Positions 18,941-42,912 of a stretch of 64,000 nucleotides of DNA are shown here, in pieces; position 1 is the first letter of the stretch; every line of letters starts with the position of its first letter. Source of the DNA: Nitrospirota bacterium (lineage in GTDB: Bacteria > Nitrospirota > Thermodesulfovibrionia > Thermodesulfovibrionales > Dissulfurispiraceae); assembly GCA_963710375.1 (NCBI GenBank), contig CAVPZX010000003.1:128001-192000 (forward strand), in the 5' to 3' direction. A model generated the notes under the pieces. The model was given only the letters and a program-made list of their open reading frames with translations. It was not told the origin of the DNA and made no database searches. The position numbers were made by a program, and so were the translations under genes.

Positions 18941-18954
18941 AGTATTCTTTTCTT

Positions 18955-23183: not shown

Positions 23184-24572
23184 ATGAAAGGATCAAAACT
23201 TTTAATGGTGATCGCGGCGACAACTGTGGTGACACTCGGTTTAAGCGGCATCTCCTACGCATTCCATGACGGCAGCGTAGCTTATTGCGACGGTTGCCAT
23301 ACCATGCACAATGCGCAGGGTTCGACCCCGATGCAAGGTAACAGCGGCGCTGCGGGGAAGGGAAAATCAAACGGTGTGCAGTTTACCGGTAATCTCTTCC
23401 TGCTCCAGGGAAGCGATCAGAGCTCGACCTGTCTTAACTGCCATGGATCAACGAGTGCCGGCATTTACTATGAATACACGATTGGTGCATCGACAGCCAC
23501 TGTTCCACTCAACTTCACTCCGGGTGGTGACTTTGGCTGGCTCCAGATCGTTCCTGGCAACGGTTCTAGTGCCGGGCAGCTTTACAGAAGAGGTCACAAC
23601 ATCGTCGCCGTTGACTATAGCTTGACCGCATCACCGGTGTTCACGACCGCCCCGGGTTCAAATACAGTAAATGCTTATCCCGCTAGTAATTTCCACTGCT
23701 CAAGCTGCCATGACCCTCACGGCACATACAGGCACACGGGAGGAGATCCAGGCGTCAGTAGTGATATTAAAAGCTCTGTCTTTACGAGCGGCGGCGCAGG
23801 CGTGCAGACCATTGGTTCAGGCTCTTATGGTCAAACCGCTGCAGGTCAAGGCGCCACAGGTACTGAGGCAGTAGGCGTTTACAGACTTCTTGCAGGTGCC
23901 AAATACTTGCCTGCATCTGTTTCTACTACAGCATCAGCTTTTGTTAACGATGCTCCCATAGCAGAGGCCCCCAGTTCCTACAACTCATCGGAAGGCGTTT
24001 TCGGTACTACGAGTACTTCCGCAGGTTTGGGCGGCGCTACTGCTGAGCTCATAGTGTCCTATGGCTCCGGCATGTCGGAGTGGTGTGCAAACTGCCATGG
24101 CGCTATTCTTCAGGGCGGCGGCTCGATGACCAATTTTATCCATCCTGCAGGAAAAGGTGCGAATCTCGGCGCAGCTACTCTCGGCGCCCAGACGCTTGCT
24201 GCGAATTACAATAGCTATATCGGGTCTGGCAATATGACGGGTACTAATGTATATACTTCGCTGATCCCGGTAGAGAATGGTTCGATAACTACAGGTGCTT
24301 CTCAATTCGGCGGTATTGCACCGACTGTTACCGGAAACAGCAACGTGATGTGCCTCACCTGCCACAGGGCACATGCTTCAGCCTGGCAGAACATGACGAG
24401 ATGGGACAACACTACCGAGCTTATTACGAATAACACCGGGTATGCTCAGGGTCCAATCATAACCTACAACTACACCACGGCCCAGTTCCCTGCTGCCTAC
24501 AACGGCAGGCCGTATACTGCATTCGTAGCAAACCAGCGATTGCTCTGTAATAAGTGCCACGCAAAAGACTGA
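23184..24572 (+). CDS. omcS: OmcS-family hexaheme cytochrome (nanowire subunit-like), copy 1
   Basis: Mature N-terminus FHDGSVAYCDGCHTMHN; TPGGDFGW, GHNIVA, CSSCHDPHG, GMSEWCANCH, CLTCHRAHAS and C-terminal LCNKCHAKD, all matching G. sulfurreducens OmcS motifs as I recall them. Confidence 0.88.
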   Translation: MKGSKLLMVIAATTVVTLGLSGISYAFHDGSVAYCDGCHTMHNAQGSTPMQGNSGAAGKGKSNGVQFTGNLFLLQGSDQSSTCLNCHGSTSAGIYYEYTIGASTATVPLNFTPGGDFGWLQIVPGNGSSAGQLYRRGHNIVAVDYSLTASPVFTTAPGSNTVNAYPASNFHCSSCHDPHGTYRHTGGDPGVSSDIKSSVFTSGGAGVQTIGSGSYGQTAAGQGATGTEAVGVYRLLAGAKYLPASVSTTASAFVNDAPIAEAPSSYNSSEGVFGTTSTSAGLGGATAELIVSYGSGMSEWCANCHGAILQGGGSMTNFIHPAGKGANLGAATLGAQTLAANYNSYIGSGNMTGTNVYTSLIPVENGSITTGASQFGGIAPTVTGNSNVMCLTCHRAHASAWQNMTRWDNTTELITNNTGYAQGPIITYNYTTAQFPAAYNGRPYTAFVANQRLLCNKCHAKD

Positions 24573-24608
24573 TTGTTAGCCCTTAGTTATTCAATGAGGT
24601 AAAATGAG

Positions 24609-24637
24609 ATGCCGGTCCTTACGGACCGGCATTTTTT
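24609..24637 (+). terminator. Rho-independent terminator after omcS copy 1
   Basis: ATGCCGGTCC-ttac-GGACCGGCAT followed by a T run. Confidence 0.85.
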
Positions 24638-24700
24638 AGTGCTCCACCTTTTTGTTCAGCTTTACACAGCTATCTCCAGTCACTTCTCACGTGTCTTTAC

Positions 24701-24736
24701 TGGTGAAACCGCTTACCAGACCTGGTGGATTTACCG
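24701..24736. promoter_or_regulatory. Putative enhancer (UAS) for the sigma54 activator
   Basis: TGGTGAAACCGCTT...TGGTGGATTTACCG, about 110 bp upstream of a -24/-12 site. Confidence 0.55.
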
Positions 24737-24811
24737 GTCCAATAGGGCATGGCATACCTGCAATGTGATAATAATCATTACATATCAATGACATAAATAA
24801 TTATCGCGAGC

Positions 24812-24827
24812 TGGTACAAACATTGCT
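24812..24827 (+). promoter_or_regulatory. Putative sigma54 -24/-12 promoter
   Basis: TGGTACAAACATTGCT (GG-N10-GC). Confidence 0.7.
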
Positions 24828-24847
24828 TTCTATAGATTTCGTTTAAC

Positions 24848-25807
24848 ATGAAAAGAAAACTACTAAACAAAACTCATCTAATCCTTTTTTCAGCGTTCAT
24901 CCTGGCAATCGCCTTAATGCCGGTGAAGGTCCTGGCAGCAAGGGGTTCGTATCTTTATAGTCTTTCCAATTTTGATGGTATCGCGCCGTTTAACTGGGTG
25001 CGGATGCATATTGATGATGCTACTGGAGAAGTCTACGTCGCTGATCCGGCAACTCAATCCATCGTAATTTTTAATAATGTCGGCATGCAAATCTATGATT
25101 TCGACACTAGTGAGTTCGGCAGGGTTATGGATTTCGCGGTAGACAATGAGGGCAATTTCCTGATTTTAACATCTCAGTATGGCTCTGCTGCCACTCTCAC
25201 GAAATGCAACTACCGCGGCGAATTTGTTTCGAGGACCGAATTCAAAGGCATTCCGCCCGGAATCGCATCGAACTTTTCCCCAAATCGTTTTTTCTACAAA
25301 AATAACCGCTTTTACCTCGCAAGCGATGGAGCGATGAAAGTCGTTGTAACCGACATAAACGGTATTTTCGAGTCAAGTTACGATCTTAAATCGATGCTTA
25401 AATTGGATGAGAAGACACTGCAGTCCAGCACAGGCATTTTCGGTCTCACGGTCGATAATGCCGGCAGGATACTCTTCACCATTCCCTCTGCATTTTCAGT
25501 GTATATAGTATCTCCCGACGGCACATGGACGTCTTTTGGCCAGCACGGCAGTACTCCCGGGAAATTCAATATTGTATCCGGGATTGCCGAGGACGATAAA
25601 GGGAACATATATGTAACCGACAAGCTCAAATGCGCGGTCATGGTCTTTGACCGGAACTATAACTTCAAGACAGAGTTCGGGTACAGAGGGTCAGCTAAGG
25701 ATAATTTGGTTGTCCCAGATGACCTTGCGGTCGATAAAAGCGGCAAGGTATATGTAAGTCAATCGAGGAACCGCGGCGTAAGTGTTTTTCATGTGGATAT
25801 TGACTAA
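24848..25807 (+). CDS. Exported NHL-repeat beta-propeller protein
   Basis: Signal peptide; GIAEDDKGNIYVTD and PDDLAVDKSGKVYVS repeats. Confidence 0.88.
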   Translation: MKRKLLNKTHLILFSAFILAIALMPVKVLAARGSYLYSLSNFDGIAPFNWVRMHIDDATGEVYVADPATQSIVIFNNVGMQIYDFDTSEFGRVMDFAVDNEGNFLILTSQYGSAATLTKCNYRGEFVSRTEFKGIPPGIASNFSPNRFFYKNNRFYLASDGAMKVVVTDINGIFESSYDLKSMLKLDEKTLQSSTGIFGLTVDNAGRILFTIPSAFSVYIVSPDGTWTSFGQHGSTPGKFNIVSGIAEDDKGNIYVTDKLKCAVMVFDRNYNFKTEFGYRGSAKDNLVVPDDLAVDKSGKVYVSQSRNRGVSVFHVDID

Positions 25808-25927
25808 TGCAGCAGGTGACCACGCAGCTTGTGTAAGGAGGTGACCGCACAGAAGGAAGATAAGCAGTAAAAATACGTAGTAAGCAGTTAGTGATTGATA
25901 CCGGTTTTACCGGTAATAAAAACCAAT

Positions 25928-26021
25928 CCTCTGTAAAAGGTAAACCCATCGTAAGGTGGGGGCACAAAGTCAACGGGTCCCTGTTCAGCCCATATGTAAG
26001 GGACGGCCGGATTGCCGGAGT
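25928..26021 (+). ncRNA. GEMM-I (cyclic di-GMP-I class) riboswitch in the omcS copy 2 leader
   Basis: GGUAAA-CCCAUC-GUAA-GGUGGG-GGCACAAAG core, P3 GUCCCU/AGGGAC, 3' GGCCGGAUUGCCG and P1 CUCUG/CGGAG. Confidence 0.85.
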
Positions 26022-26042
26022 CAAAAAAAGTGGAGGATTGCA

Positions 26043-27425
26043 ATGAAAGGAATCAAAGTTTTATTTGTTATCATGGCAGCGGCCCTGATAACACTTGGCT
26101 TAGGCAGTACTTCTTACGCATTCCATGACGGCGGCGTCGCAGTTTGCGACAGCTGCCATACTATGCACAATGCGCAGGGTACAACGCCGATGCAAGGTAA
26201 CAGCGTTTCAGGTTATGGAAAATCAAATGGTGTGCAGTTTACCGGTAATCCATTCCTGCTCCAGGGAAGCGATCAAAGCTCCACCTGTCTGAACTGCCAT
26301 GGAGCAACTACTACCGGCTCTTACCATGAATACACGCTTGGCGCAGCGACAGCTACTGTTCCACTCAACTATACTCCGGGTGGTGACTTTGGCTGGCTCC
26401 AGATCGTTCCCGCCAACGGTACTAGTTCCGGGCAGAATTACAGAAGAGGTCACAACATAGTTGCAGTGGACTACGGATTGTCCGCATCACCGGTCTTCAC
26501 GTCAGCCCCGGGCGCAAATACAGCAAATGCATATCCCGCAAGCAATTTCTACTGCTCAAGCTGCCATGATCCTCACGGCACATACAGGCACACAGGAGGA
26601 GATCCGGCCGTCAATAGTGATATCAAAAGCTCTGTCTTTACGAGCGGCGGCGCAGGCGTGCAGACCATAGGATCAGGCTCTTATGGTCAAACCGCTACAG
26701 GTCAAGGCGCCACAGGTAGTGAGGCAGTAGGCGTTTACAGACTTCTTGCAGGTGCGAAATATTTGCCTGCATCCGTTGCGATTTCAGCATCAGCTTTTGT
26801 TAACGATTCCCCCATAGCAGAGGCTCCCAGCACCTACAATGTATCGGAAGGCGTTTTCGGCACTACGAGCGGTACCAAAGGTGCCGGCGGCGCCACTGCT
26901 GAGCTTATAGTGTCCTATGGCTCCGGCATGTCGGAGTGGTGTGGAAACTGCCATGGCGCTATTCTTCAGGGCGCCACAATGGGCAATTTTATCCATCCTG
27001 CAGGAGCAGCTGCGACTCTCGGCACAACGACAGTCGGCTCCCAGACGCTTGCTGCGAATTATAATAGCTATATCGGGTCTGGCAATTTGTCCGGTACTAA
27101 TGTATATACTTCGCTGATTCCAGTAGAGAATGGTTCGATAACTACAGGTGCTTCTAAATTTACCGGTATTGCTCCGACTGTTAGCGGAACCAGCAACGTA
27201 ATGTGCCTCACCTGCCACAGGGCGCATGCTTCAGGATGGCAGAACATGACAAGATGGGACAACACTACAGAGATGATTACGAATACCACCGGGTATGCTG
27301 CGGGTTATACCCCAATCTACAACTACACCACGACCCAGTACCAGGCTGCTTACAACGGCAGGCCGTATGGTGCATTCGTAGCAAACCAGCGTTCACTCTG
27401 TAATAAGTGCCACGCAAAAGACTAA
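26043..27425 (+). CDS. omcS: OmcS-family hexaheme cytochrome, copy 2
   Basis: True start is ATG 26043 after GGAGG. FHDGGVAVCDSCHTMHN...LCNKCHAKD with 6 CXXCH; close paralogue of copy 1. Confidence 0.88.
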   Translation: MKGIKVLFVIMAAALITLGLGSTSYAFHDGGVAVCDSCHTMHNAQGTTPMQGNSVSGYGKSNGVQFTGNPFLLQGSDQSSTCLNCHGATTTGSYHEYTLGAATATVPLNYTPGGDFGWLQIVPANGTSSGQNYRRGHNIVAVDYGLSASPVFTSAPGANTANAYPASNFYCSSCHDPHGTYRHTGGDPAVNSDIKSSVFTSGGAGVQTIGSGSYGQTATGQGATGSEAVGVYRLLAGAKYLPASVAISASAFVNDSPIAEAPSTYNVSEGVFGTTSGTKGAGGATAELIVSYGSGMSEWCGNCHGAILQGATMGNFIHPAGAAATLGTTTVGSQTLAANYNSYIGSGNLSGTNVYTSLIPVENGSITTGASKFTGIAPTVSGTSNVMCLTCHRAHASGWQNMTRWDNTTEMITNTTGYAAGYTPIYNYTTTQYQAAYNGRPYGAFVANQRSLCNKCHAKD

Positions 27426-27452
27426 TTTAGCAAATGAAGTATAGTAAGTCGT

Positions 27453-27491
27453 AAGAAAAGAGGCCGGCAGCCGCCGGCCTCTTTTCTTTTT
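27453..27491 (+). terminator. Rho-independent (possibly bidirectional) terminator after omcS copy 2
   Basis: AAGAAAAGAGGCCGGC-agcc-GCCGGCCTCTTTTCTT followed by TTT. Confidence 0.85.
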
Positions 27492-27589
27492 ATCTTGTCC
27501 TGTATTGAATTATTACTGTTTTCTATTTTAGTATGTACCGTGATAGCGTATATCTTTATATGTACTTTAATTTAAGGGGGGGCATACTG

Positions 27590-29017
27590 GTGAAAAAATC
27601 ACTGGGCATAGCACTTTTAATCTTGCTTTTTATGGCAGGGTGTGAGTCAGTGAACACTCAGGTGAAGCCGGCGCTTGAGAATGAGGGGGAAGTGTTCGTA
27701 TATATCGCATCATTTCCTCAGGAGGCGGACAGGCTTACCGTCGAAATTGAGAGCGTTACCGCTGTGCGTAACGACGGCGCAGAGTTCCCCCTTACGCTTA
27801 ATTTTGTAACACTGAAAGGAAGCGACCTGAAGAGACAACGCTTCCTGGCTTCCGGCCGGCTGCCGCCGGGTCATTATACGGGCCTGTCCATAAAGACGAA
27901 GAGCGCGAAAGTGGCTGCTGAGGAGGGAGAAGCAGCGTTGCTCGTACCGCCCGAGCCTGTGAAGAACGAATTCTCTTTTGAGGTGACAAGGAAAAGAGCA
28001 CTCCTTCTCTCCCTTCTTTATCAGCCTTCCAAGTCCGTGCTGGAAGGCTTCACGTTCAGGCCGGTCTTCACGATCTCTATCCCGAGTGCGCCGCCAGTCA
28101 ACCTTATCGGTTATGTAACGAACAGCGGCGCCAATACCATTACGGTTTTTGATAAGCAGTCAGGGCTGGTAAGAAGCGTTATTGCAACAGGTGAGCGGCC
28201 AATGGGCATGGCCCTCGACCAGACTTTGCGTAAGGCCTATGTCGCTTTTGAGGGTGAAGATGCCGTGGGTATCATTGACCTGTTGTCCGGCACGATTGTA
28301 AACAGGATCTACCTCAGCGGAGGCGACATGCCCTGTGAATTGGCGCTCACCCCCGACCAGCAGTTCCTGTTAACGGTGAACACAGGTTCACAGACTGTCA
28401 GCATTATCAATACGCAATCCATGTTCGAAACAGCGAGGGTGCCTGTCGGACAAGGACCTCATTCAATAATTATCAACAGGACCGGCAGCAGGGCATATGT
28501 CTTCAACTCCATTTCGAACACAATATCGATCATTAATATTGCTGCCTGGTCATCGGGACGGCCTACTACTGCCCAGGCGGTTCAGACTGTCAGTACAGAG
28601 CCGGGTCCCATGACCGGCCAGTTCAGCAGCAGGGGAGACAAACTCTATGTGGTCCAGGAGCGCTCGCTATATATTACTGTACGGGATCCGGCCTCTAACG
28701 CTCTGCTAAACAGAATATACATGGGTACCGGAGGCAGGACGATCAAAGTGGACCCTAATACAAATATGCTCTATGTGGCGCCTGCCGGCGGAACAGATAT
28801 CGAGATCTATGACCCGTTCTCACTGATTGCCGGCTATTTCATGCCTATGGAAGGAGAAGTTGTTTCTATGACAATAGACAATGACGACAACACCTTATGC
28901 GCTGTGGTTCCCGAAAAGAGAATGGTGAAGATCATCAATCTCACGAGCAGGAAAGTGATCTCTGAGATGGACGTCGATGTCAACCCGTACTGGGTGGACG
29001 TAATGGGCGAACGGTAG
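27590..29017 (+). CDS. YVTN/YncE-type beta-propeller lipoprotein
   Basis: Lipobox MAGC; GYVTNSGANTITVFD repeats; GTG start after a G-rich RBS. Confidence 0.85.
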   Translation: MKKSLGIALLILLFMAGCESVNTQVKPALENEGEVFVYIASFPQEADRLTVEIESVTAVRNDGAEFPLTLNFVTLKGSDLKRQRFLASGRLPPGHYTGLSIKTKSAKVAAEEGEAALLVPPEPVKNEFSFEVTRKRALLLSLLYQPSKSVLEGFTFRPVFTISIPSAPPVNLIGYVTNSGANTITVFDKQSGLVRSVIATGERPMGMALDQTLRKAYVAFEGEDAVGIIDLLSGTIVNRIYLSGGDMPCELALTPDQQFLLTVNTGSQTVSIINTQSMFETARVPVGQGPHSIIINRTGSRAYVFNSISNTISIINIAAWSSGRPTTAQAVQTVSTEPGPMTGQFSSRGDKLYVVQERSLYITVRDPASNALLNRIYMGTGGRTIKVDPNTNMLYVAPAGGTDIEIYDPFSLIAGYFMPMEGEVVSMTIDNDDNTLCAVVPEKRMVKIINLTSRKVISEMDVDVNPYWVDVMGER

Positions 29018-29034
29018 GTATCGGCCGGCCGGGA

Positions 29035-31347
29035 ATGTCAAGACTTTCACTGTTATTTTTTTTAGTGTGTGCCGCTGCGGTGATATATACGGAGGCGTTT
29101 AGTGGAAGAGCCTGTGCAGACGATATATCGGGCTATGCGGAACTGGACTATTCACATTCCAACCAGAAGACCGACAACGGAAACGGAAACGTTTCCACGC
29201 AGAAAACAGATGATGTCACACAGCGATATAACCTTTCGCTAACTAAGCTGCTTTATCCCAACCTTAAGTTTTTTGCAAACGGTATTTTTGAGAAGGATAT
29301 GGCATCTACCGTAGACGAAACCGGCAAGACAAATTCAACGACGACAAACATTCAGCCGGTCGTCAGCCTTACTTTAGGCACCCCGGTAATCGTGGCCGGG
29401 GCCACATATAACAGGCTCCAGATTAATACGCAGTCCTCAGGCGCCTCTCAGACCCTTATCAACGAAAATTACAGTGGTTCGCTCGGCTTAAGGCCGGAAG
29501 GGTTGCCGTCTTTCGACATCAATGAACAAATGACCAGGACTTATGACCCGGCGCATGTCGTTGAGAACCTGATAACGGACCGGCTGTCAGTGGGTTCAAG
29601 GTTTAGTCCCGTGAAGGGTCTTGATCTGGGTTATCAGTTCGGCTATACCGATACTAATGACAAGTTGGCAGATGTTACCACGACGCAGATCAACAACAGC
29701 GGCACATTTTCGTATAATCATAGTTTTTGGGGTAACAGGGTTCGTTTTGGCGTAGACGGCAACGTCTCGCAGCTTCAAACTAAGGCGACCATCGGCGCTG
29801 CATCTACTACCGGCACAGCGCAGTTCAGCCAGTCAGCCGTTTCTGGTCTGTATGCAGCGGACTCGACAGCAGACTCTCCACTGGGCGTGGATGTGCCGCC
29901 CCATACACCCGTCAACGATGCAATGATTTCCACAACCTTCCTTATCAATGGCGGCGATTTCCTCGGCAATGTGGGAAAGCTGAATATCGGTTTTCCTCAG
30001 ACGAACCCGGCGGACAACAACCCCCGTGATGTAGGTCTGGCTTTTGCGCAACCCACGGAGCTGGATGCCATTTATGTAACCGTTAACCAGGATGTCAACA
30101 GCATAGCTACATCATATTCCTGGGATGTATACATAAGCTCCGATACCAATATCGGGCAAGGGGTGAGTCCCACTGCCACGCAGCAGTGGACCCTATACCA
30201 GCAGGGGGCAACTTTTATCTTTTCAGAGATCGACAACACTTTTAGAATTAGCTTCCAGAAGGTTACAGCTCAGTTCTTCAAGGTGGTAACAAAGCCCCTC
30301 AGTGTGCCTGCTTCTGTGCCTGGAGTGGATGTCAATAACATACTTATCAGCCAGGTACAGGCGTTCGATACGACCGCTCCTTCGAATGCTCCGACAAACA
30401 AGACCACCACGACTACACAGAACTACGACATGAACTTGAGGGTGAGGATCCTCAATAAGCCGGTGCTCTACTACGACCTGACGTCCTATTATTCAAACAC
30501 GTCAAATAAAGGTTCAGGCTTCGCAGTGGGTCACCCCAGCCTGTTGACATACTACATCTCCAACGGCCTGTCAGGGGCATACCAGTTCAGCAGGGTATTT
30601 TCGACATCCGCAAGGGTCGCACTAGAGGACAGCAAAGACCAGCAGGGCTCCGGCGTCACCCAGATCTACAATGCCGCGGTTACCGCGGCGCCCCTTGAAA
30701 CGTTGAGCCACTCTCTCGTCTTCAGCAGCAGGCGGGAATCGATCCACGGAGCGCCTCAAGACATCACCTCGCTATTCCTGACTAATCTTGCCCAACTATA
30801 TAAAGGGATCAATGCTGCCTTTTCAGGCGGATTAAACTGGACCACCCAGACAACGCTTCAGAAAAACACGAGTGAAACCCTTAATGCCACCCTCAGCTTC
30901 GTCCCTTACAAAGTCCTTACTATTAACAGTGATTTTACCTACACGAACTCAAAGACAACAGGAGGGAACATACCCAACGTGCTGACAACATCTGAACGAA
31001 GCGATCTGGCGTTTACATATACTCCATTCCCGACACTGAACTTTTTAGGGTCCATAGGCGTGTTTTCCGGGGCAAATGTCCAGTCGAGCACTATCGTAAA
31101 CTATGGCGTGAACTGGTCGCCGTTCCCCAACGGCACACTCCTGTTCAATTTCTCCTACATTGAGGATCTCAACTCTTTGAACAGTGTAAAAGATACAACG
31201 ATATTGCCTACTGTCAGATGGAACATCAGCCCTAACACATATTTGACAATTACCTATAATATCTTCAAGACTAAATCCGTCGTAACAAATGTGCCTCAGA
31301 ACACATCCCTCGACACTTTAAGTACGGTGCTCCATGTGTCATTCTGA
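29035..31347 (+). CDS. Predicted outer-membrane beta-barrel protein with inserted extracellular domain
   Basis: Signal peptide, alternating aromatic/Ser-Thr beta-strand pattern, C-terminal LHVSF; central non-barrel-like segment. Confidence 0.7.
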   Translation: MSRLSLLFFLVCAAAVIYTEAFSGRACADDISGYAELDYSHSNQKTDNGNGNVSTQKTDDVTQRYNLSLTKLLYPNLKFFANGIFEKDMASTVDETGKTNSTTTNIQPVVSLTLGTPVIVAGATYNRLQINTQSSGASQTLINENYSGSLGLRPEGLPSFDINEQMTRTYDPAHVVENLITDRLSVGSRFSPVKGLDLGYQFGYTDTNDKLADVTTTQINNSGTFSYNHSFWGNRVRFGVDGNVSQLQTKATIGAASTTGTAQFSQSAVSGLYAADSTADSPLGVDVPPHTPVNDAMISTTFLINGGDFLGNVGKLNIGFPQTNPADNNPRDVGLAFAQPTELDAIYVTVNQDVNSIATSYSWDVYISSDTNIGQGVSPTATQQWTLYQQGATFIFSEIDNTFRISFQKVTAQFFKVVTKPLSVPASVPGVDVNNILISQVQAFDTTAPSNAPTNKTTTTTQNYDMNLRVRILNKPVLYYDLTSYYSNTSNKGSGFAVGHPSLLTYYISNGLSGAYQFSRVFSTSARVALEDSKDQQGSGVTQIYNAAVTAAPLETLSHSLVFSSRRESIHGAPQDITSLFLTNLAQLYKGINAAFSGGLNWTTQTTLQKNTSETLNATLSFVPYKVLTINSDFTYTNSKTTGGNIPNVLTTSERSDLAFTYTPFPTLNFLGSIGVFSGANVQSSTIVNYGVNWSPFPNGTLLFNFSYIEDLNSLNSVKDTTILPTVRWNISPNTYLTITYNIFKTKSVVTNVPQNTSLDTLSTVLHVSF

Positions 31348-31362: not shown

Positions 31363-31986
31363 GTGGAAATAGTATCAAATAATATGTTAATGTTTGTTTT
31401 TCGTATGAGTAATATCGTATCTAAAATCAAAGCGATTGTTCTGTTAGCAGTGCTATGCTTGCTGCCCTGCTGCGGCGGACGCAGTTCTGATTCCTATCGG
31501 GATCCGAATATGGATTTCGCCTCTATACGGACCGTGGCCGTGCTGCCCTTTGCAAATCTGTCAAAAGACCAATTGGCTGGTGAGAGGGTGAGGGACGTGT
31601 TTATTCCAATGCTGATGGAGAGCGGGAGCATCTATGTTTTGCCTCCTGGAGAAGTAGCCCGCGGACTCTCAAGGATCAATGTTGCCAATCCCACTGCTCC
31701 TGCTGTTGAAGAGGTGACGAAACTGGCCTCGATCCTGAGAGTGGATGCCGTTATCACAGGTTTGGTAAGGGAATACGGTGAATTACGGTCGGGAAACACA
31801 GAGGCAAATGTCATTTCGCTGAGCCTCGAAATGCTCGATGGACAGACAGGAAGGGTAGTGTGGGTCGCCTCTACCACTAAAGGGGGGATCACGTTGAAAG
31901 ACAGGCTCCTTGGCGGCGGCGGCAGCGCCATGAACGATGTGACCGAAAATGCAGTGAATGATCTGCTTGATAAGCTTTTTAAATAG
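31363..31986 (+). CDS. CsgG/PelC/GNA1162-like lipoprotein
   Basis: LPCCG lipobox-like; TVAVLPFANLS, VDAVITGLVREY and DGQTGRVVW. The start may be ATG 31405. Confidence 0.75.
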   Translation: MEIVSNNMLMFVFRMSNIVSKIKAIVLLAVLCLLPCCGGRSSDSYRDPNMDFASIRTVAVLPFANLSKDQLAGERVRDVFIPMLMESGSIYVLPPGEVARGLSRINVANPTAPAVEEVTKLASILRVDAVITGLVREYGELRSGNTEANVISLSLEMLDGQTGRVVWVASTTKGGITLKDRLLGGGGSAMNDVTENAVNDLLDKLFK

Positions 31987-33145: not shown

Positions 33146-33314
33146 ATCTGAGTTGCAGACAGGTGGGGTTCAAAATTGAAAATGGTATGCTCAATGTGAT
33201 AGCATATTATCCTGTGGTTACATTCATTTATTCAAACAAATTCCCGGAACAAGCTGTCAAAGATTCTAATGGTTTGCTGTGAGGATTCCGGAATTGCACA
33301 TAGGGGGAAATCCA

Positions 33315-35108: not shown

Positions 35109-37108
35109 GGAGCCTGCACATGTGGCGGATCTTAATTGCAAAACACAGGAGAGGGTTGGCAGGGGCGGCATTGCTACTGTTGTGCATGATAGCAATCCTC
35201 TCTGCGGCGCTTGGTACTGCGCTGGCAGAGAGGAAATTTACCCGCAAGGAGTGCCTGGACTGCCATACGAAGTTTGCTGAAAAATACCTTTCCATGAAGA
35301 GCGTTCATGCCGTGGTTAAAGAAAAAAAATGCGAGGAATGCCACATAAGGCATGGACTGGTGCCTAAGAACGTCCTGAAAAAAGCGGGCAACGAGCTCTG
35401 TTTTACCTGCCACACAATAGAGAAGCTCGGCCTGACTAAGCCGCAGGTACATTCCGCATTGAAGTCAGGCAGTTGTACGCAGTGCCATAATCCCCACGCA
35501 TCGCAGGCCAGCCATCTGTTGAAAGCGGAAGGCAACGAGGTCTGTTACCAATGCCATAAAAAAGAAATTTTTGAAAAGAAGGTTGTGCATAAGGTGATGC
35601 AGACAGAGGGCTGCAAGGCTTGCCATTTCTCGCACAGCTCCGACGAGAAAAATCTCCTCACCAAGCCGGAGACGCAGTTGTGTCTTTCCTGTCATGACAA
35701 GGGCGCTGAAGCTTTTAAGAAGGCACACGGCGGATATCCGGTGGAGACAAAACTGTGTTCGGTCTGCCATAATCCACACTCATCAGAGCAGCCGAAACTG
35801 CTGAAAACGAGCGTTCATAACCCTGTGGCATCGGGCACGTGCGATGCCTGCCACGCCGATGCAAAATCCGCGAAACCGTTCGCCGTAACGCAAAGCGGCG
35901 GGAAGATGTGCGAGATGTGCCATGATTCAGAATCGTTAAGGGCAGGGGGAACGGTTGATCACGTCCCGTTCAAAAACGGACTCTGCCTCGAATGCCATAA
36001 TCCGCACGCCTCGGAAAATTTCAGGCTGCTCATGCTTGGCGGCAACAATCTTTGTTTCAAGTGTCATAAAGAAAAAGGTGTAAAGCCGATGTTCAGCCAC
36101 CCCGCGGTTTCCGGCGGTAAGGGCTGCCTCTCATGCCATGCACCCCATGCTGCAAAGAATCCGCGGCTCCTCCAGGTCAAAGATGGAGATATCTGCCTGA
36201 CCTGCCACGTAAAAATGAAAGAGGTGCTTAAGAGCAAAGTCATTCACCCGCCGTTTGCCGAGCAGATGTGCAGCACCTGTCACGATCCCCATGGTTCAAA
36301 TCTGACGGCCATGCTAAGGGACAGAATGGACAAGGTCTGCTACGGGTGCCATACCGATGCCGAAACACAGTTCGAAAAAACCTATATCCATAAGCCGGTG
36401 CGGACTGCACAATGTACTGCCTGCCATAGTCCTCACGGCTCTGCAAATGAGAAACTGCTGAAGGCTGAGGGGGCGGAGTTGTGCGAAAAGTGCCACAGCG
36501 AGCTTATGAAAGAAGTTAAAGGCGGAACAAACCACGTGCCATTTGCGGGAGGGATGTGCCTTACATGTCACAAACCTCACGCCAGTGATGTTTCCGGAGT
36601 GCTTGTCAACAAGCAGATTACACTATGCCTTACCTGTCATCCGGAAATCGGCAAAGGACTGGACGGGAGCATGAGCAAACACAAGCCTGTTGCGGCTGGT
36701 GAGTGCACAAAATGCCATAGCCCCCATAAGTCGAAAATAAATAAGCTGCTCCTCGCAGAGGGTCCTGATCTCTGCTTCTCCTGTCATAAGGACAAAAAGG
36801 AGAAAATGGAAAAGGAAAAGGCGCATCCGCCTGCTACCAGCGATTGTCTGACCTGCCACAAGCCGCACTATTCAGGCGAGAGGACACTGCTTGCCCAACC
36901 TGTTAAAGATCTCTGCAGCCAATGCCACGACCTGAAAGAAGAGACGTTCAGCAAGGCGCATATAGGGATTAATCCCGACGTCATCGACTGCAGGACGTGT
37001 CATGACCCCCATGCGTCGAACGACCCGAACTTCTTCAAGGACACCGTTCATCCGCCTTTTGCCGCCCGCACGTGTGAAGAATGCCACGTGGTTGGAGGTA
37101 AGAAATGA
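35105..37108 (+). CDS. 26-heme periplasmic cytochrome c (paired CXXCH repeats)
   Basis: Counted 26 CXXCH in H-P-x-CxxCHxPH...LCxxCH repeats; signal peptide. Confidence 0.93.
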   Translation: MRSLHMWRILIAKHRRGLAGAALLLLCMIAILSAALGTALAERKFTRKECLDCHTKFAEKYLSMKSVHAVVKEKKCEECHIRHGLVPKNVLKKAGNELCFTCHTIEKLGLTKPQVHSALKSGSCTQCHNPHASQASHLLKAEGNEVCYQCHKKEIFEKKVVHKVMQTEGCKACHFSHSSDEKNLLTKPETQLCLSCHDKGAEAFKKAHGGYPVETKLCSVCHNPHSSEQPKLLKTSVHNPVASGTCDACHADAKSAKPFAVTQSGGKMCEMCHDSESLRAGGTVDHVPFKNGLCLECHNPHASENFRLLMLGGNNLCFKCHKEKGVKPMFSHPAVSGGKGCLSCHAPHAAKNPRLLQVKDGDICLTCHVKMKEVLKSKVIHPPFAEQMCSTCHDPHGSNLTAMLRDRMDKVCYGCHTDAETQFEKTYIHKPVRTAQCTACHSPHGSANEKLLKAEGAELCEKCHSELMKEVKGGTNHVPFAGGMCLTCHKPHASDVSGVLVNKQITLCLTCHPEIGKGLDGSMSKHKPVAAGECTKCHSPHKSKINKLLLAEGPDLCFSCHKDKKEKMEKEKAHPPATSDCLTCHKPHYSGERTLLAQPVKDLCSQCHDLKEETFSKAHIGINPDVIDCRTCHDPHASNDPNFFKDTVHPPFAARTCEECHVVGGKK

Positions 37109-38394
37109 GAGGAACTGCGATGTATTTTAGATACACATTGCTCCTTCTGATTTCCGTTGCCTGTGTCCTCTCATCCGGGACGCCTGCCCATTCAGAGGAA
37201 AATAAGTTCAACCTGAAGCTGGGGGCCAGAGGGAAGGTCTGCCTGAATTGTCACGTTGAAATGCAGGACAAGCTAAAAAATCCCTTCGTACACACCCCTG
37301 TCAAGGTCGGTGACTGTACTGGATGCCATAACCCTCACACGTCTTCTCACGGCAAACTCCTTGCCGCAGATCCCAGCAAGATATGCCTTACCTGCCATAA
37401 AGCGATGGTGCCTGAAAATGCGCGCAGCGCCCATAAAGTTGTTGTGGACAATAACTGTATCAAGTGCCATGACCCTCATTCCGCAAAGAACAAGTTTAAT
37501 CTGCTGCAAAGCGGCAATGAACTCTGTTTTGGCTGCCACAAAGATATGGGTAATGTGGTTACAAAAGTAAAGTTCAAGCATTATCCGGTGGAAAAAGGAT
37601 GTCTCACCTGCCACAACCCACATGCCTCGATAAAGGCAAAATTCCTCTTGAAGGACGAAGTGCCTTCGCTTTGCCTTGGCTGCCATAAGACCAATCAGCC
37701 TATGTTTACGAAAGCTCATATGAACTACCCGGTGCAAAGGGCACGTTGTACAACATGCCATAACCCTCACGGCTCTGACAGACCCGGCATTCTCTTTAAT
37801 AATGTCCATAAACCTGTTGCCGGCAAGATGTGCAACCAATGTCATGAAGACCCTTCATCCAGCAATCCTTTTGCTACCAGGAGGCCCGGTTTTGAACTAT
37901 GCCAGGGGTGCCACAGCGGTTTGATCAAGGATGTCTTCAGCAAGAACAGGATACACTGGCCTCTGTTGGACAAAAAGAGCTGCCTGACCTGCCACAACCC
38001 GCATGCTTCACCTGAACCCAAACTCCTTAAAGCCTCGATGCGGCAGGTATGCGGCGCTTGTCATGCCGACAGTATCCAGCGGCAGGACAGGTCACAGACC
38101 AAGCATCCGCCGATAAAGGATGGGATGTGCACCTCATGCCACGAGCCTCATGCCGGTGACAGTCCATACTTTTTCATAAAGCCGACAGTTATCGAATTAT
38201 GCGGCACATGCCATGATTGGGAAAAGCATTCATCGCACCCGCTCGGTGAAAAGTTCATCGACCCGCGGAACAAGAATCTGACGATTCAGTGCCTTAGCTG
38301 TCACCGGGCTCACGGCACCGAACATAAGTCCTTTATTTATGCTTCACCGGTTAGTGCGTTATGCACACAGTGCCACGTTAAATATCAGAGGTGA
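37105..38394 (+). CDS. 16-heme periplasmic cytochrome c (paired CXXCH repeats)
   Basis: Counted 16 CXXCH; signal peptide. Confidence 0.93.
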   Translation: MRGTAMYFRYTLLLLISVACVLSSGTPAHSEENKFNLKLGARGKVCLNCHVEMQDKLKNPFVHTPVKVGDCTGCHNPHTSSHGKLLAADPSKICLTCHKAMVPENARSAHKVVVDNNCIKCHDPHSAKNKFNLLQSGNELCFGCHKDMGNVVTKVKFKHYPVEKGCLTCHNPHASIKAKFLLKDEVPSLCLGCHKTNQPMFTKAHMNYPVQRARCTTCHNPHGSDRPGILFNNVHKPVAGKMCNQCHEDPSSSNPFATRRPGFELCQGCHSGLIKDVFSKNRIHWPLLDKKSCLTCHNPHASPEPKLLKASMRQVCGACHADSIQRQDRSQTKHPPIKDGMCTSCHEPHAGDSPYFFIKPTVIELCGTCHDWEKHSSHPLGEKFIDPRNKNLTIQCLSCHRAHGTEHKSFIYASPVSALCTQCHVKYQR

Positions 38395-39308
38395 TGAATA
38401 TGATAAAAAACATAATGAGACTTTTTGCTGTCATAGTGGTACTGCTCCTGCCGATTGGCGCATTCAGCGCCGACATTCCCAAGTTCCGCTTCATAACCTC
38501 AATATACACTGACAGTAAGGGAGACTCCTTAAAGCAGCCGGAGGGGGTGGCCTGCAACTATAAATCGCTTGTTGTTGTGGCCGATACGGGGAAAAACCGT
38601 CTAATTAAATATACCTTCTCTGACGGCTCATTGCAGGGGGGAGACGAGCTGCCTGTTTCAGGACTGTCCAATCCGCTGCGGGTCCAGGTGAATTCAAAAG
38701 GAGAGATCTTTGCCCTTGACGGAAAAGAGCGCCGTATTGCACGGATAAGCCGGGAGGGTGCATTAATGGGTTATGTCACACCCCAGGGGCTGCCGGCTCC
38801 CCCTGATTTTATTCCGAGGAGCTTCAGGATCGATGGAAACGATGCTATTTACATCATCGATATATTTAATGCACGCGTGCTGGTCCTCGATCCGTCGATG
38901 AAATTCATACGGCTGCTGCCATTCCCCGACAACTATGGTTTTATATCGGACCTTGCAGTAAATGCGCAGGGCACTATTTTTTTGATCGACAGCGTGAACT
39001 CTGTAGTGTATTCGGCCGACAAGAATGCGAGCGGTTTTGCGCCGCTGACAAAGCCTCTGAAAGAAAATATAGCCTTTGCCGCCAATATCGCCCTTGATAA
39101 CAATGGCACGATCTACCTGGCTGACCAAAACAGCAGTACTATAGTCACCATCAATAAAGACGGTTCTTTTCAGACAAGGCATTTGAGCATGGGATGGAAA
39201 GACGGTATGCTTCACTATCCCACTCAAATGTGCATCACCAACAGCGGTGACATGTTCATTGCAGACAGGGACAACAACAGGATTGGGATATTCAACATTG
39301 TCCAATAG
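38391..39308 (+). CDS. Exported NHL-repeat beta-propeller protein
   Basis: PEGVA...VVADTGKNRL and PTQMCITNSGDMFIADRDNNRI repeats. Confidence 0.88.
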   Translation: MMNMIKNIMRLFAVIVVLLLPIGAFSADIPKFRFITSIYTDSKGDSLKQPEGVACNYKSLVVVADTGKNRLIKYTFSDGSLQGGDELPVSGLSNPLRVQVNSKGEIFALDGKERRIARISREGALMGYVTPQGLPAPPDFIPRSFRIDGNDAIYIIDIFNARVLVLDPSMKFIRLLPFPDNYGFISDLAVNAQGTIFLIDSVNSVVYSADKNASGFAPLTKPLKENIAFAANIALDNNGTIYLADQNSSTIVTINKDGSFQTRHLSMGWKDGMLHYPTQMCITNSGDMFIADRDNNRIGIFNIVQ

Positions 39309-39370
39309 AAAATATCAGGTCCTGGCCGGCAAGCTCGTTCAGAGTATTTGAATCCTGGTTGAAATTGTGA

Positions 39371-40027
39371 TTAAGGCTTTTGCAGCTGAAGGCCGCTCAT
39401 TTTAAGTCCGTCAATAAGGCTTTTGAACCTCTTGTAGGATTCTCCGGATTTATTTCCGTCCAGCGCCACAATGTCTCTGACTTTTGCATTCGCCGAGAGG
39501 AGTGCGCCTTCAAAGCGTTCAGCCTCTTCCCGTTGACGTTCTGTTTTTGTTCTTTCTGTTTTTTCTGTTTCTATTTTCTCCTCATCCGCAATTTTTCCGA
39601 TAGTATCGACATCCGGTCTTTGTTTGGTTTGCTCCTTATTTTCAGGTGATTGTTCAACTTTGTCCTCTTGCGCGCCATCCGGTTTTGCCATAGCAGCAAC
39701 AGCATCGCTGATAAACCTGTCAAGATCAGCGGAAGCACTGCTTGTGTAAAACGCGCTCAGCGGAACATCCACGACATTTACGGATTTCTCTTCTATAGCA
39801 TCCAGAAATGAATTCACGGATAAAGCTGCCCTGTTATATGAATCAACAAGAGGTTTGCGTTTATCGCCGGTAAGGTCTTTTCTTGCGCTTACCTGATCAG
39901 CCAAGTAGTTTGCAAGCAGGATTTTCTCGCATGCCGCCCTCAGCCCGTCAGTCCTTTTGACTTCGTAGCACCCTGCCAAAAACAGGCATACTGCTATAAT
40001 AAATGCAATACAAACTGTTTTCTCCAT
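39371..40027 (-). CDS. Hypothetical lipoprotein
   Basis: LAGC lipobox after a hydrophobic stretch. Confidence 0.7.
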   Translation of the reverse strand: MEKTVCIAFIIAVCLFLAGCYEVKRTDGLRAACEKILLANYLADQVSARKDLTGDKRKPLVDSYNRAALSVNSFLDAIEEKSVNVVDVPLSAFYTSSASADLDRFISDAVAAMAKPDGAQEDKVEQSPENKEQTKQRPDVDTIGKIADEEKIETEKTERTKTERQREEAERFEGALLSANAKVRDIVALDGNKSGESYKRFKSLIDGLKMSGLQLQKP

Positions 40028-40055
40028 AGACGCGACTTCCTGTTCCCAGGACATG

Positions 40056-40628
40056 TCAAAGCTGGTGGAATGCGCGGATTTCTTCCTTCATTCTCTCCAC
40101 AGCAGACTGGAGCGATAGGGCGCTCGATAACGATGGAGTACCCGTGAGCATTGATGTGCTGAGTTCTGTTGACGCTGCGGACAATGCCGGCTGCTGCTCT
40201 TTAATCCGCAGAATTTTTTCCCGAAGACTTGCCCGCATCTCATCCAAACCCATGGCCAGGTCCTGAAACTCATCCCCCTTTCTGAGGACGACCTTGCTTG
40301 CAAGGTCGCCGCCGGCAATCCCTGCAAGGCTTCTTTTGATCGCAAAAAGCGGCGGGGAAAGCCGCTTCAAAAGCGAATGAATAATCTGAGCAAGAATGCC
40401 TGCAAAAACTACAAGCGTAACCACCTGCACGCCGATAGTAAGGGGGAGGAGCAGTTCGTTTATTGTAGAAATATCGCAATAGGACGAATAACACAAGACC
40501 GTCAGCTTTTTCTGGGCAACATAGATAAACAGCATGACTGTGACAGCCGCCCATATTGTCGCAAGGACGACAAACCGCATAATGAAACGGGATTGAAGAT
40601 CTTTATTGATAAAATAATTTCTTCTCAT
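40056..40628 (-). CDS. Small two-TM HAMP-domain membrane protein
   Basis: RRNYFINKDLQ N-terminus; PLFAIKRSLAGIAGGDL...LRKGDEFQDLA HAMP motif. Confidence 0.8.
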   Translation of the reverse strand: MRRNYFINKDLQSRFIMRFVVLATIWAAVTVMLFIYVAQKKLTVLCYSSYCDISTINELLLPLTIGVQVVTLVVFAGILAQIIHSLLKRLSPPLFAIKRSLAGIAGGDLASKVVLRKGDEFQDLAMGLDEMRASLREKILRIKEQQPALSAASTELSTSMLTGTPSLSSALSLQSAVERMKEEIRAFHQL

Positions 40629-40664
40629 TATTCACCTTTACCTATGCCTGTGTCCCTGCCTGTG

Positions 40665-41243
40665 TCATGTCCTGATTTCCGAGAGGCTCCTCTCGATTTT
40701 TTTTATATTGCTTTCCATTTCTTCTGCCGACTGCCTGATTGCTGCAGTATCATGGCCATTCCGGATAATTTCGGCTGCAGCCCTTGACTGCATCTCAAGA
40801 GTGTCGAGACAGGCCGTAATTTCAGAAATACGGGACCTGTACCGGCTCGCCACATCATTTAGAAAAATCTTCATGTCCTTCAGGTTGTCCTTTGAGCGAA
40901 AAGAGAAATTGCAGGTCAGATCGCCCTGAGCGATTTTGGCCGCCTCAACTCCGAGGCGATAGGCAGGGCCGGCTATGCGGTGAGAATAGAACAAATGAAA
41001 CACAGCCAGAGCCAGAGCAATAACAATAGAAATGGCCGCATAGACGCTTGCCACTTTCCATATAAGGTCTTTCCGGATCGATTGCACTGCTGCCAATGTG
41101 TTATGAAAGCCCTGACCCAGGTTTGCCGGAAACAACAAAGAGACTGCCCAACAGGCCATAGCAGCACCGAGCGAAACAATTACGAATGTAATTATATATA
41201 AGAATATTCGATAATTTTTCTGTGTAACGAGTCCCTTCTGCAT
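40665..41243 (-). CDS. Small two-TM HAMP-domain membrane protein
   Basis: SHRIAGPAYRL...IAQGDL...FRSKDNL HAMP motif; start uncertain (ORF open to 41318). Confidence 0.78.
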   Translation of the reverse strand: MQKGLVTQKNYRIFLYIITFVIVSLGAAMACWAVSLLFPANLGQGFHNTLAAVQSIRKDLIWKVASVYAAISIVIALALAVFHLFYSHRIAGPAYRLGVEAAKIAQGDLTCNFSFRSKDNLKDMKIFLNDVASRYRSRISEITACLDTLEMQSRAAAEIIRNGHDTAAIRQSAEEMESNIKKIERSLSEIRT

Positions 41244-41643
41244 ATGCGCCCTTTCAATAACAATATCATCAGTCTTCCAGCTACAAGATACTTTAACAGA
41301 TGAGTAATCATAGTGCAAGTGGCGCCACCGCTGGGTAGTGGGCCAGTTTGTTTTTGTTCTGTATCACCTGGGTTATCAGTAGTGGGCGAGTAACCTGCAC
41401 CCCAAAAAGTCTTACGACTTGTTGGGGACCCCGTCCGCCGAGCCCACATATATAGAAGTGGCGACCACAGATAATGCTCAATATAGGCCAGTGATTGAAT
41501 TGAACGGCTAATTGATACAGAGCAAAAACAAACTGGCTCACTACCCAAAGGAATGATGGTGGAGGCGGCAGATCAATACATGTTAAAATTAAAGTGATAT
41601 ACTTTCTTTAATAATCGAATGCGTTGCTGTAAAATGAAACTGA

Positions 41644-42912
41644 ATGAATCAGGCAAAGGCCATGAAAAAAAGTATAAAACTTTATGTATCCCTTATAGTA
41701 GTATGTTTTGTCTGTAGCCGGCTGAGTCCGGCTGGTGCAACCCCTTCCCCTGCCTTTCATAGGGGAGGGACTAATGAGTGTCAGGAATGCCACACCAACA
41801 AAAATGCCGACTCAAGAGATTTTGCTCAAATGCTCCGTGAAATAAAAGGGTTGAACAGACCTCGATCGGACAAGAGCAGCGATTTAAGAGGATCGGATGA
41901 GAGTTCGACCTGCCTTCGCTGCCATGAGGCTCCCAGAGGCACACGGAACCCTACCGGACATTATGTCGCAACCAATATCTCCGATTTGCGCGGCGGCCTG
42001 CCTCCTTCACAAATGACGCCCGGGGGAGACTTCGGATGGTTAAAGAAGAGTTACTTCTGGAAACCGCCTGACGAACGAGGTCCCGGTCATTGGAGCTCCG
42101 GCTTCCTGCACGGGCATAGTATTTTAGCAATGGACTACGGATATGACGGCAATAGCGACTACTATACTGCACCGGGTGGAAGCTATCCGGCAAGAAATCT
42201 TTCCTGCATTAGCTGCCACGATCCGCATGCTACAATTGCTAAAGGTCCTGGAGATAGAGGCTCTTATCGCTTGCTGGGCGGGAAGGGCTATTCACCTAGC
42301 TCAGCCGGAGGTATGGCGTTCGCTATTGACCCGCCTGTGGCTGTTGCTCCGCGCGGCTATAACAGGGCCGAGTATGCAACCGAGACCAGGGTTGCTTATG
42401 GAAAGGGAATGTCAGAATGGTGCACAAATTGCCATGCAAACAGTTGCTCAGGAAGTTACGGCCATGCCGTCTGCAATAATGCCAGGTTCGGCGTGGTAAT
42501 TGCCGCCAATTATAACGCATATCGGAAAACAGGAGACCTCAACGGAATGGAAAGCAGATCATTCACCTCGCTTGTACCGTTCGAGGAGGGTACGGATAAC
42601 ATTTCGTTTCTCCATCAGCACGCGAACACAGATGGAAGATACACCAGCGGCCCTGGCCCGAGTGCCAATGTAATGTGTCTGACCTGCCATAGGGCGCATG
42701 CATCTGCCTGGGACAACATGACACGATGGAACATGACCACGCCGTTTATCGTTTATAAAGGTAATTACCCGGGGATCGATAACGGTTCGCCTGTGAGATT
42801 GGCGCAGGGACGTACTTCCGCCGAGACAAAAAAAGCATATTATGACAGGCCCGCTACCTTTTTTGCCTCGTATCAAAGGAGCCTGTGTGATAAGTGCCAC
42901 CCAAAGGACTGA
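41644..42912 (+). CDS. Divergent OmcS-family hexaheme cytochrome, copy 3 (lacks the His16 equivalent)
   Basis: FHRGGTNECQECHTNKN, QMTPGGDFGWLKK, CISCHDPH, GMSEWCTNCH, CLTCHRAHAS and LCDKCHPKD. Confidence 0.85.
   Translation: MNQAKAMKKSIKLYVSLIVVCFVCSRLSPAGATPSPAFHRGGTNECQECHTNKNADSRDFAQMLREIKGLNRPRSDKSSDLRGSDESSTCLRCHEAPRGTRNPTGHYVATNISDLRGGLPPSQMTPGGDFGWLKKSYFWKPPDERGPGHWSSGFLHGHSILAMDYGYDGNSDYYTAPGGSYPARNLSCISCHDPHATIAKGPGDRGSYRLLGGKGYSPSSAGGMAFAIDPPVAVAPRGYNRAEYATETRVAYGKGMSEWCTNCHANSCSGSYGHAVCNNARFGVVIAANYNAYRKTGDLNGMESRSFTSLVPFEEGTDNISFLHQHANTDGRYTSGPGPSANVMCLTCHRAHASAWDNMTRWNMTTPFIVYKGNYPGIDNGSPVRLAQGRTSAETKKAYYDRPATFFASYQRSLCDKCHPKD

Follow-up and report, generated by a model that had tools for sequence, protein, structure and literature searches.

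Can a bacterium of the phylum Nitrospirota build conductive OmcS-type cytochrome filaments (nanowires) like those of Geobacter sulfurreducens? The question is raised by a run of multiheme cytochrome genes on contig CAVPZX010000003.1 of assembly GCA_963710375.1, within a stretch of 64,000 nucleotides (positions 128,001 to 192,000, forward strand) that we call the window and whose first letter is position 1. Judged from its sequence, the run is a genuine osc cluster carried by a Nitrospirota bacterium, of a known kind and common in the host's class, and we put the probability at about 0.68 that it serves extracellular electron transfer by folding, exporting and anchoring conductive filaments of two of its cytochromes, OmcS1 and OmcS2. 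Gene set, gene order, heme counts, OmcS-like sequence and predicted fold, host lineage and island position form the direct basis of this reading, while the mechanistic steps are carried over from the G. sulfurreducens system (Shen 2025, through PMC13194489). Genome G467, whose hexaheme agrees with the OmcS chain 6EF8 in N-terminal motif and in mature length (407 residues), stands in for the G. sulfurreducens locus. The osc letters A, B and K are assigned here provisionally, by interpolation. The cluster reads as follows, with identities to the G467 counterparts:

23184-24572, plus strand: omcS1, hexaheme OmcS-family cytochrome with His16, predicted filament subunit (E 1.1e-71 to 6EF8, full length)
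24811-24827, plus strand: predicted sigma-54 (-24/-12) promoter before oscA (exact match to the consensus)
24848-25807, plus strand: NHL beta-propeller, OscA (GSU2505) counterpart (42.7%, to the NHL gene that precedes omcS there)
25930-26020, plus strand: cyclic di-GMP (c-di-GMP)-I (GEMM-I) riboswitch aptamer, 22 nt before omcS2 (Rfam RF03167, 59.9 bits, gathering 59)
26043-27425, plus strand: omcS2, hexaheme OmcS-family cytochrome with His16, predicted main filament subunit (E 5.6e-73 to 6EF8)
27533-29017, plus strand: YVTN beta-propeller lipoprotein, OscD (GSU2500) counterpart (40.6%; TIGR02276; lipobox MAGC)
29035-31347, plus strand: outer-membrane beta-barrel, OscE (GSU2499) counterpart (34.3%; barrel model)
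31363-31986, plus strand: GNA1162-like lipoprotein, OscF (GSU2498) counterpart (58.0%; PF05643)
31958-33145, plus strand: two-domain GNA1162-like lipoprotein, OscG (GSU2497) counterpart (40.6%; lipobox LAAC)
33279-35108, plus strand: SurA/PpiC-type chaperone (peptidyl-prolyl isomerase), OscH (GSU2496) counterpart (38.6%; PF13145)
35105-37108, plus strand: 26-heme cytochrome, OscI (GSU2495) counterpart (55.7% to the 26-heme protein)
37105-38394, plus strand: 16-heme cytochrome, OscJ (GSU2494) counterpart (51%; 50.7% full length to G554)
38391-39308, plus strand: NHL beta-propeller, OscK (GSU2493) counterpart (46.4%)
39371-40054, then 40056-40628 and 40665-41318, minus strand: a lipoprotein, then two small HAMP membrane proteins with two transmembrane segments each (absent from the list of the first-pass annotation)
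41644-42912, plus strand: omcS3, OmcS-fold hexaheme with Lys for His16, candidate cap or anchor subunit (E 2.8e-90 to 6EF8)

The genes that the first-pass annotation had placed at 23184-42912 are all present on the plus strand, in the order and with the heme counts it gave (6 CxxCH motifs in omcS1, 6 in omcS2, 26 and 16 in the two large cytochromes and 6 in omcS3, 60 in total), with the qualification that the order is unbroken only from omcS1 to the NHL gene at 38391-39308; the three minus-strand genes at 39371-41318 separate the latter from omcS3, which is transcribed away from them. The cluster had also been called complete, and this could not be upheld, as it is one gene short, the OscB counterpart having no tblastn match in the host genome. 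The unit also exceeds those coordinates and forms an island at about 9916-42939.

How closely does this arrangement follow G. sulfurreducens? An earlier claim of similar gene set and order is borne out by nine osc counterparts, oscA and the entire (8/8) eight-gene block oscD-K, which stand in the same order as in G467 at 34-58% identity. The block was defined as GSU2500-GSU2493 in PMC12977616, and the names and roles (OscH in folding, OscEFG in secretion, OscD in morphology) are given in PMC13194489, citing Shen 2025. Also shared are the 26-heme count, omcS-like genes directly upstream, a GEMM-I riboswitch before omcS, and a sigma-54 regulator, a kinase and a membrane tetratricopeptide repeat (TPR) gene nearby. 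Here, in contrast, the host is a member of the Nitrospirota, the order is omcS1-oscA-omcS2-oscD, OscB was not found, riboswitch position 20 is G and not A, and there are an extra His16-less omcS3 with a HAMP pair and an island with duplicated resB-ccsB. A separate OscC-type paralog seems likewise to be missing (congener G003 has a second type there), the OscC (GSU2501)-type place before oscD being filled by omcS2, the twin of omcS1; a grouping of these genes with OscC was not rejected in the approximately unbiased (AU) test (p 0.084). The 16-heme gene of G467 itself (L174:6192-7529) reads in its assembly as two frames with 10 + 5 CxxCH.

Would the two main cytochromes be expected to polymerise? 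In phmmer searches against the PDB each of the three hexahemes matches one sequence only, that of the OmcS filament (6EF8/6NEF), with which OmcS1 and OmcS2 share a full-length match, six CxxCH motifs and six conserved distal histidines. A family alignment of 103 members has exactly 12 conserved His columns, six within CxxCH and six distal (positions 2, 16, 110, 147, 257 and 335 in 6EF8 numbering); 11 of them are kept in 101-103 of the rows and His16 in 93/103. OmcS1 and OmcS2 keep all 12, which agrees with the solved OmcS filament, where all 12 heme ligands are histidines and one comes from the neighbouring subunit (Filman, 10.1101/492645). His63 was considered as a ligand and rejected, being kept in 42/103 rows only and replaced by Tyr in OmcS1. 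The inter-subunit ligand we take to be His16, reportedly so in Wang 2019; a search of the accessible literature found no paper naming this residue. The two genes are 82% identical and are a recent pair, and both proteins differ from OmcS in Gly/Ser/Thr-rich insertions and in having 34 charged residues versus 57. For omcS2 the longest open reading frame (ORF) begins at GTG 25956, but ATG 26043 sits behind the riboswitch and a ribosome-binding site (RBS); a strong terminator-like hairpin (27453-27488) lies 3' of the gene. At another Nitrospirota-titled locus (L031:5500-19500) at least five OmcS genes stand in tandem, two of them nearly identical.

By analogy, signal peptides would take OmcS1 and OmcS2 across the inner membrane, ResB-CcsB (present twice here) would attach their hemes and the OscH chaperone would hold them; they would exit through the OscE barrel together with the OscF and OscG lipoproteins, OscD shaping the filament and His16 of each subunit ligating a heme of the next. 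Electrons would be fed in by the 26- and 16-heme OscI and OscJ and by PpcA-like trihemes and NrfD-type quinol oxidases encoded elsewhere in the genome. An OmcS homolog of Desulfurivibrio is induced more than 100-fold on iron oxide (PMC12545173). The annotation's wider reading, in which nanowires serve extracellular or interspecies electron transfer, is supported in part: host lineage, gene-for-gene match and fold agree with it, while the filaments and their use are predictions.

Several points weigh against filament formation. OmcS1 and OmcS2 are only about 42% identical to OmcS and form their own Nitrospirota clade rather than being orthologs of OmcS proper (AU p 0.035 for one clade with OmcS, in a quick tree of 28 rows). 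All four G467 paralogs keep His16, yet OmcS is the only one of the four G. sulfurreducens paralogs with a known wire (PMC12977616); His16 thus does not suffice, three paralogs having it without being known to polymerise. According to the same paper, hidden Markov models are unable to identify true nanowires beyond the genus. The 1035-aa protein from the G467 oscB position (GSU2502) found no match in the host genome (tblastn, E<=1e-5), though oscB is possibly not core, because G554 has a different gene at its place. Filaments in Nitrospirota are so far a prediction from genes; OmcS proved dispensable for growth on Fe(III) oxide and anodes in some studies (PMC13194489); omcS alone is reported to give OmcS filaments in Shewanella (10.1101/2023.10.26.564108); and an alternative route exists in the genome, where a DmsE/MtrA decaheme is paired with an MtrB-like barrel at another locus.

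The barrel brings in a further explanation, namely that the cluster encodes a large porin-cytochrome conduit for surface display, in which OscI and OscJ would pass electrons to the barrel, and OmcS1 and OmcS2 would be surface monomers or short oligomers rather than micrometre wires. The OscE counterpart (770 aa, C-terminal Phe, no family matches) is modelled with 28 long strands and an inserted beta domain (predicted local distance difference test, pLDDT, 81; predicted template-modelling score, pTM, 0.55) and is predicted to be an outer-membrane barrel. All listed matches of its fold search are outer-membrane barrels, none of them close; the highest listed template-modelling (TM) score, 0.42, is to MtrB, and the OscI and OscJ counterparts match DmsE/MtrA-type models. 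The locus shares with the MtrAB conduit (PDB 6R2Q) a large barrel encoded with multiheme cytochromes of the paired-CxxCH type. A secretion role of the eight-gene block may predate OmcS (PMC12977616), and placement of OmcS1 and OmcS2 in the OscC clade was not rejected, which would both suit such a conduit. The barrel match is loose, however (root-mean-square deviation 13.4 A), with the inserted domain, no MtrB family match and the accompanying chaperone, propellers and lipoproteins setting the locus apart from MtrAB, the prevalence of His16 across the family is hard to explain without a partner subunit, and the riboswitch context fits omcS, not oscC. We consider a conduit unlikely and filament export the better reading.

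Which organism carries the cluster? The host is a Nitrospirota bacterium, as the annotation had suspected in calling it probably non-Geobacter and Nitrospirota-like. Its RpoB is 96.4% identical to that of a Nitrospirota-titled genome (L008), 64-82% to those of eleven further Nitrospirota-labelled genomes and 58.7-58.9% to those of three Geobacteraceae. In the RpoB tree, for which 14 of 24 rows were taken (as for its AU test), it shares a clade with a record classed as Thermodesulfovibrionia (Shimodaira-Hasegawa-like approximate likelihood ratio test, SH-aLRT, 100), from which we infer the class, and a grouping with Geobacteraceae is rejected (AU p 9e-55). The genome (G000; 98.8% complete) has no dsrA match and holds 22 ORFs with at least three CxxCH motifs; its multihemes include two c7 trihemes and NrfC/NrfD-like pairs with multihemes, and it has a Rieske/cytochrome b set. 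Three molybdopterin enzymes contain one in-frame TGA each (C6:108567, C9:46736, C3:117564) and are probably selenocysteine formate dehydrogenases. Five public sequencing runs, all soil metagenomes from two studies and one of them possibly the source, contain 89-98% of the words of 36000-45900.

This repertoire also bears on direction, since the same machinery could carry electrons into the cell, taken from minerals, electrodes or partner cells, instead of out to Fe(III). The absence of a dsrA match allows for various terminal acceptors, the MtrA/MtrB-like pair has no neighbouring MtrC-type cytochrome in the 12 kb read, and the Rieske/cytochrome b complex is accompanied in the genome by several octaheme HAO-like proteins; on the other hand, the characterised OmcS systems serve outward transfer (PMC10954620, PMC12545173), and we regard uptake as rather improbable and outward transfer as the preferred direction.

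Is such a cluster exceptional for this group? OmcS homologs occur in 37/390 genomes of the host class (19/264 of the high-quality ones) and OscF matches in 38/390, 28 of them strong (>=50% identity) and the other 10 paralogs at 33-38%; all 28 strong matches fall in OmcS-positive genomes, of which 28/37 thus have one. Among 73 loci, 22 are titled Nitrospirota or subgroups, and in seven of these 22 the flank read contains omcS and, behind it, oscD and oscE at the least; the block also turned up in Desulfuromonadia, Desulfobulbia, Myxococcota, Acidobacteriota, Fibrobacterota and Zixibacteria. Loci and genomes come from one collection, and these counts are not independent. OmcS genes in Thermodesulfovibrionia have already been reported (PMC8478452), so that the novelty implied for the host is low, while excerpts of three papers on non-Geobacter OmcS homologs (PMC10954620, PMC12545173, PMC12133095) make no mention of Nitrospirota.

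How would expression be controlled? A homologous aptamer, closely similar to the one before omcS2, precedes omcS in G467 and G003 (matches in 3/7 loci scanned), and no second riboswitch was found before omcS1. Position 20, A in G467, is G in the window and in G003, which is not the A20 of GEMM-Ib. G20 selects c-di-GMP and A20 selects cyclic GMP-AMP (cGAMP) or both (PMC6140456), and the omcST riboswitch is bispecific and responds to cyclic dinucleotides (PMC6456294). At the Hypr position, Asp rather than Ser stands in all nine GGDEF domains that a sequence pattern picked out in the genome. The G-for-A swap suggests that the same wire genes have been rewired from cGAMP/c-di-GMP to c-di-GMP control. 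Because the unbound fold pairs the 5' edge of the aptamer (25925-25933) with the RBS (z -2.1; 8/200 shuffles as stable), a translational ON switch is predicted, in which c-di-GMP would free the ribosome site of omcS2. Elsewhere in the genome (C3:198566) a putative second aptamer, matching a GEMM-I-like pattern, precedes a gene of unknown function and apparently has a different base at position 20.

Transcription of oscA-omcS2 would be driven by the sigma-54 promoter. This site is weak alone, because chance gives 2.5 matches at one mismatch, and a strict sigma-54 pattern scan found nothing; the motif precedes 11/25 oscA orthologs versus 0.006 expected per 400 bp and is absent before G467 oscA. 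Scans for sigma-70 promoters (25 vs 22.3) and terminators (24 vs 20.9) were at chance level. A sigma-54 regulator and a heme-motif kinase lie 8-11 kb upstream. A 129-bp element ending in the sigma-54-type site (24700-24828) recurs at 86% at C2:617737 and C2:168558, one copy before a histidine kinase gene, a possible small regulon.

What, then, is OmcS3? The annotation had named all three hexahemes as OmcS proteins, which is consistent with OmcS being the only PDB match of each and with a model of OmcS3 (100-sequence alignment, pLDDT 75) whose sole fold match under E 0.001 is 6EF8, at TM 0.75; the three are nevertheless not equivalent, as OmcS3 has Lys at His16 and keeps 11/12 conserved histidines. 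It differs from the filament subunit also in two segments that its subfamily lost, 14-46 (13% identity, 47% gaps) and 148-180 (82% gaps), the remaining ones being 37-63% identical to OmcS. Of the best 66 homologs taken, 55 were scorable (11 were dropped as fragments or for an unmatched N-terminus), and among these His16 is found in 0/55, the other 11 histidines in 55/55 and a seventh CxxCH in 14/55; at ranks 67-120 His16 is present in 20/45. For two seven-heme rows the His16 status was unchanged whether read at the extra motif or at the true heme-1 motif. Seven His16-less OmcS3 rows form one clade (SH-aLRT 100) spanning Nitrospirota and Geobacterales, and on a wider tree the His16-less paralogs require at least three changes. 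Stand-alone OmcS paralogs in the genus around G056 (L151, L153, L154) also lack His16, and G554 has two His16-less paralogs, one per cluster end.

A subunit able to take a bridging histidine but unable to give one would end a filament, and OmcS3 is predicted to be of this kind, accepting but not donating the inter-subunit ligand and so allowing no extension from its N-terminal face. Termination and tip structure of cytochrome nanowires are named as open in PMC13712944, where hypothesised anchor and tip cytochromes of OmcE filaments are likewise subunit-like proteins with altered histidine or heme count that would end the filament; the tip is imagined there with an extra solvent-exposed heme (compare the seven-heme homologs), and no convincing candidate is reported there for the OmcE operon, whereas the candidate described here is an OmcS-family protein whose gene closes the cluster. 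A literature search for OmcS capping, tip or anchor subunits returned nothing relevant among the matches listed, which is weak evidence of absence. Any cap would not be universal, because G467 has no paralog lacking His16. From its sequence features we consider OmcS3 a candidate cap or anchor, with the odds clearly against it.

A role unrelated to the filament is at least as likely, and we give it an even chance: OmcS3 would be a monomer of the periplasm or cell surface whose polymerisation face has been lost and whose partners are the two HAMP proteins, with redox sensing or electron shuttling as conceivable tasks. It is transcribed apart from the osc operon, has 77 charged residues versus 34 in OmcS1 and OmcS2 and lost the two segments, and G467 manages with four His16-bearing paralogs. 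The two-transmembrane HAMP gene occurs in 4/239 genomes of the order around G056 and in 3/390 of the host class; the pair adjoins an OmcS-like gene in all seven and is divergent from a His16-less omcS3 in 6/7. A strict link between the pair and His16-less genes was rejected, as the pair in G331 sits behind a distant hexaheme that bears His16. Against a monomer, genomes with omcS3 and HAMP genes (G554, G564, G581, G582) hold other OmcS-like genes, 3-4 matches each, the osc block is nearby in G000, G003, G554, L030 and L032 (loci examined), the C-terminal segments are as OmcS-like as those of OmcS1 and OmcS2 (43-47% vs 36-45%), and His16-less paralogs arose repeatedly. Returning to the cap, we may postulate, though its broadest form is doubtful, that OmcS3 proteins are dedicated cross-phylum nanowire end-pieces (tip or anchor), that seven-heme members add an exposed terminal heme contacting minerals or partner cells, that the HAMP pair controls or tethers them, and that the complete set of wire genes travels on an island under c-di-GMP control, together with a second heme-attachment system.

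Where does the cluster sit in the chromosome? It forms a 33-kb island between ccsB and tsaD, with the following features outside the osc genes:

7282-9915, plus strand: left copy of a 2,634-bp direct repeat, with resB 7305-8723 and ccsB 8740-9825, system II cytochrome c maturation (ccsB over the TIGR03144 cut-off; ResB Pfam match on the identical right copy)
9931-17419, plus strand: regulatory arm of the island, namely an FGE-sulfatase-like protein, a PhnD-like binding protein, a PAS histidine kinase (one CxxCH), a sigma-54 response regulator, two hexaheme c7-type cytochromes and a small ORF (family matches)
within 17494-22954, minus strand: PilZ-like and receiver-PilZ pair (family matches)
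19211-21652, plus strand: membrane TPR protein (21% to the TPR protein upstream of the G467 cluster)
22415-22954, plus strand: AraC-type helix-turn-helix protein (family match)
42940-45573, plus strand: right copy of the resB-ccsB repeat, then tsaD 45570-46571 (repeat comparison)

The PhnD-kinase-regulator module also adjoins osc clusters at seven other loci (L017, L040, L041, L044, L045, L049, L051). Among nine congeners only G003 has the cluster, between a single ccsB and tsaD; G007 has the regulatory arm only, behind tsaD, and ccsB stands directly before tsaD in 7/8 congeners with the ccsB locus read. A four-gene congener tree gave no resolution among G000, G002, G003, G005 and G008. The repeat copies are 99.66% identical; of the 9 positions that differ, 8 fall within 9822-9904, inside the last 95 bp. 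Recombination of island-bearing and island-free alleles would give this layout.

The repeat could instead be an assembly artefact, the island lying simply between one ccsB and tsaD as in G003. Over about 2,540 bp the copies differ at a single base, a difference that the public-run contigs do not show, each of the nine congeners has one close ccsB, and the overlap between the omcS3-resB contig and the repeat, 30 letters, misses the bridging threshold by one. Yet contigs from public runs X1 and X2 break exactly at the repeat borders (42940/42969 and 45479), and repeat-contig depth, which is not copy number, exceeds that of the flanks (X1, 26.8 vs 15-18; X2, 15 vs about 7-10; X3, 10.4 vs about 6-9); X3 joins the repeat to the left flank, and X4 carries the tail alleles of the left copy. 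An artefact thus appears very unlikely, and the repeat is probably real.

Further observations concern the island and its surroundings. An internal tandem duplication (about 83%) at 17471-19160 leaves a PilZ-like fragment beside the receiver-PilZ gene. Before the AraC ORF, which contains an exact sigma-54-type site at 22424-22440, the stretch 21790-22260 has a signal-peptide-like start and several in-frame stops and is 82% conserved in G003, likely a broken or misread gene. Short inverted-repeat families (9831-9903, 41332-41548, 51944-52140, 61727-61938) resemble miniature inverted-repeat transposable elements or repetitive extragenic palindromes, three being many-copy genome-wide, and one such element sits between omcS3 and the HAMP pair. 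Left of the island, a ShlB/FhaC-type (TpsB) outer-membrane translocator at 3591-5304 is split into two overlapping ORFs (a frameshift or assembly error) and is absent here in the congeners read; a trpE/pabB-like gene at 1910-3410 also appears as two overlapping ORFs.

What does the locus add? The host itself adds little novelty, and Shen 2025 may already cover part; the variant features beyond the known cluster are an OmcS3 subfamily without His16, the base swap in the riboswitch and the island bounded by resB-ccsB. The doubling of resB-ccsB means twice the heme-attachment capacity and would allow loss or amplification of the island. A published system is extended to an uncultured soil Nitrospirota lineage, and its lack of dsrA points to respiration of metals, humic substances or partner cells in a group rarely tested for it. 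The OmcS3 subfamily offers a named, cloneable candidate, with a one-residue prediction, for the question of how nanowires start, stop and end; should OmcS3 indeed cap filaments, the length of nanowires and the chemistry of their ends could be controlled through it.

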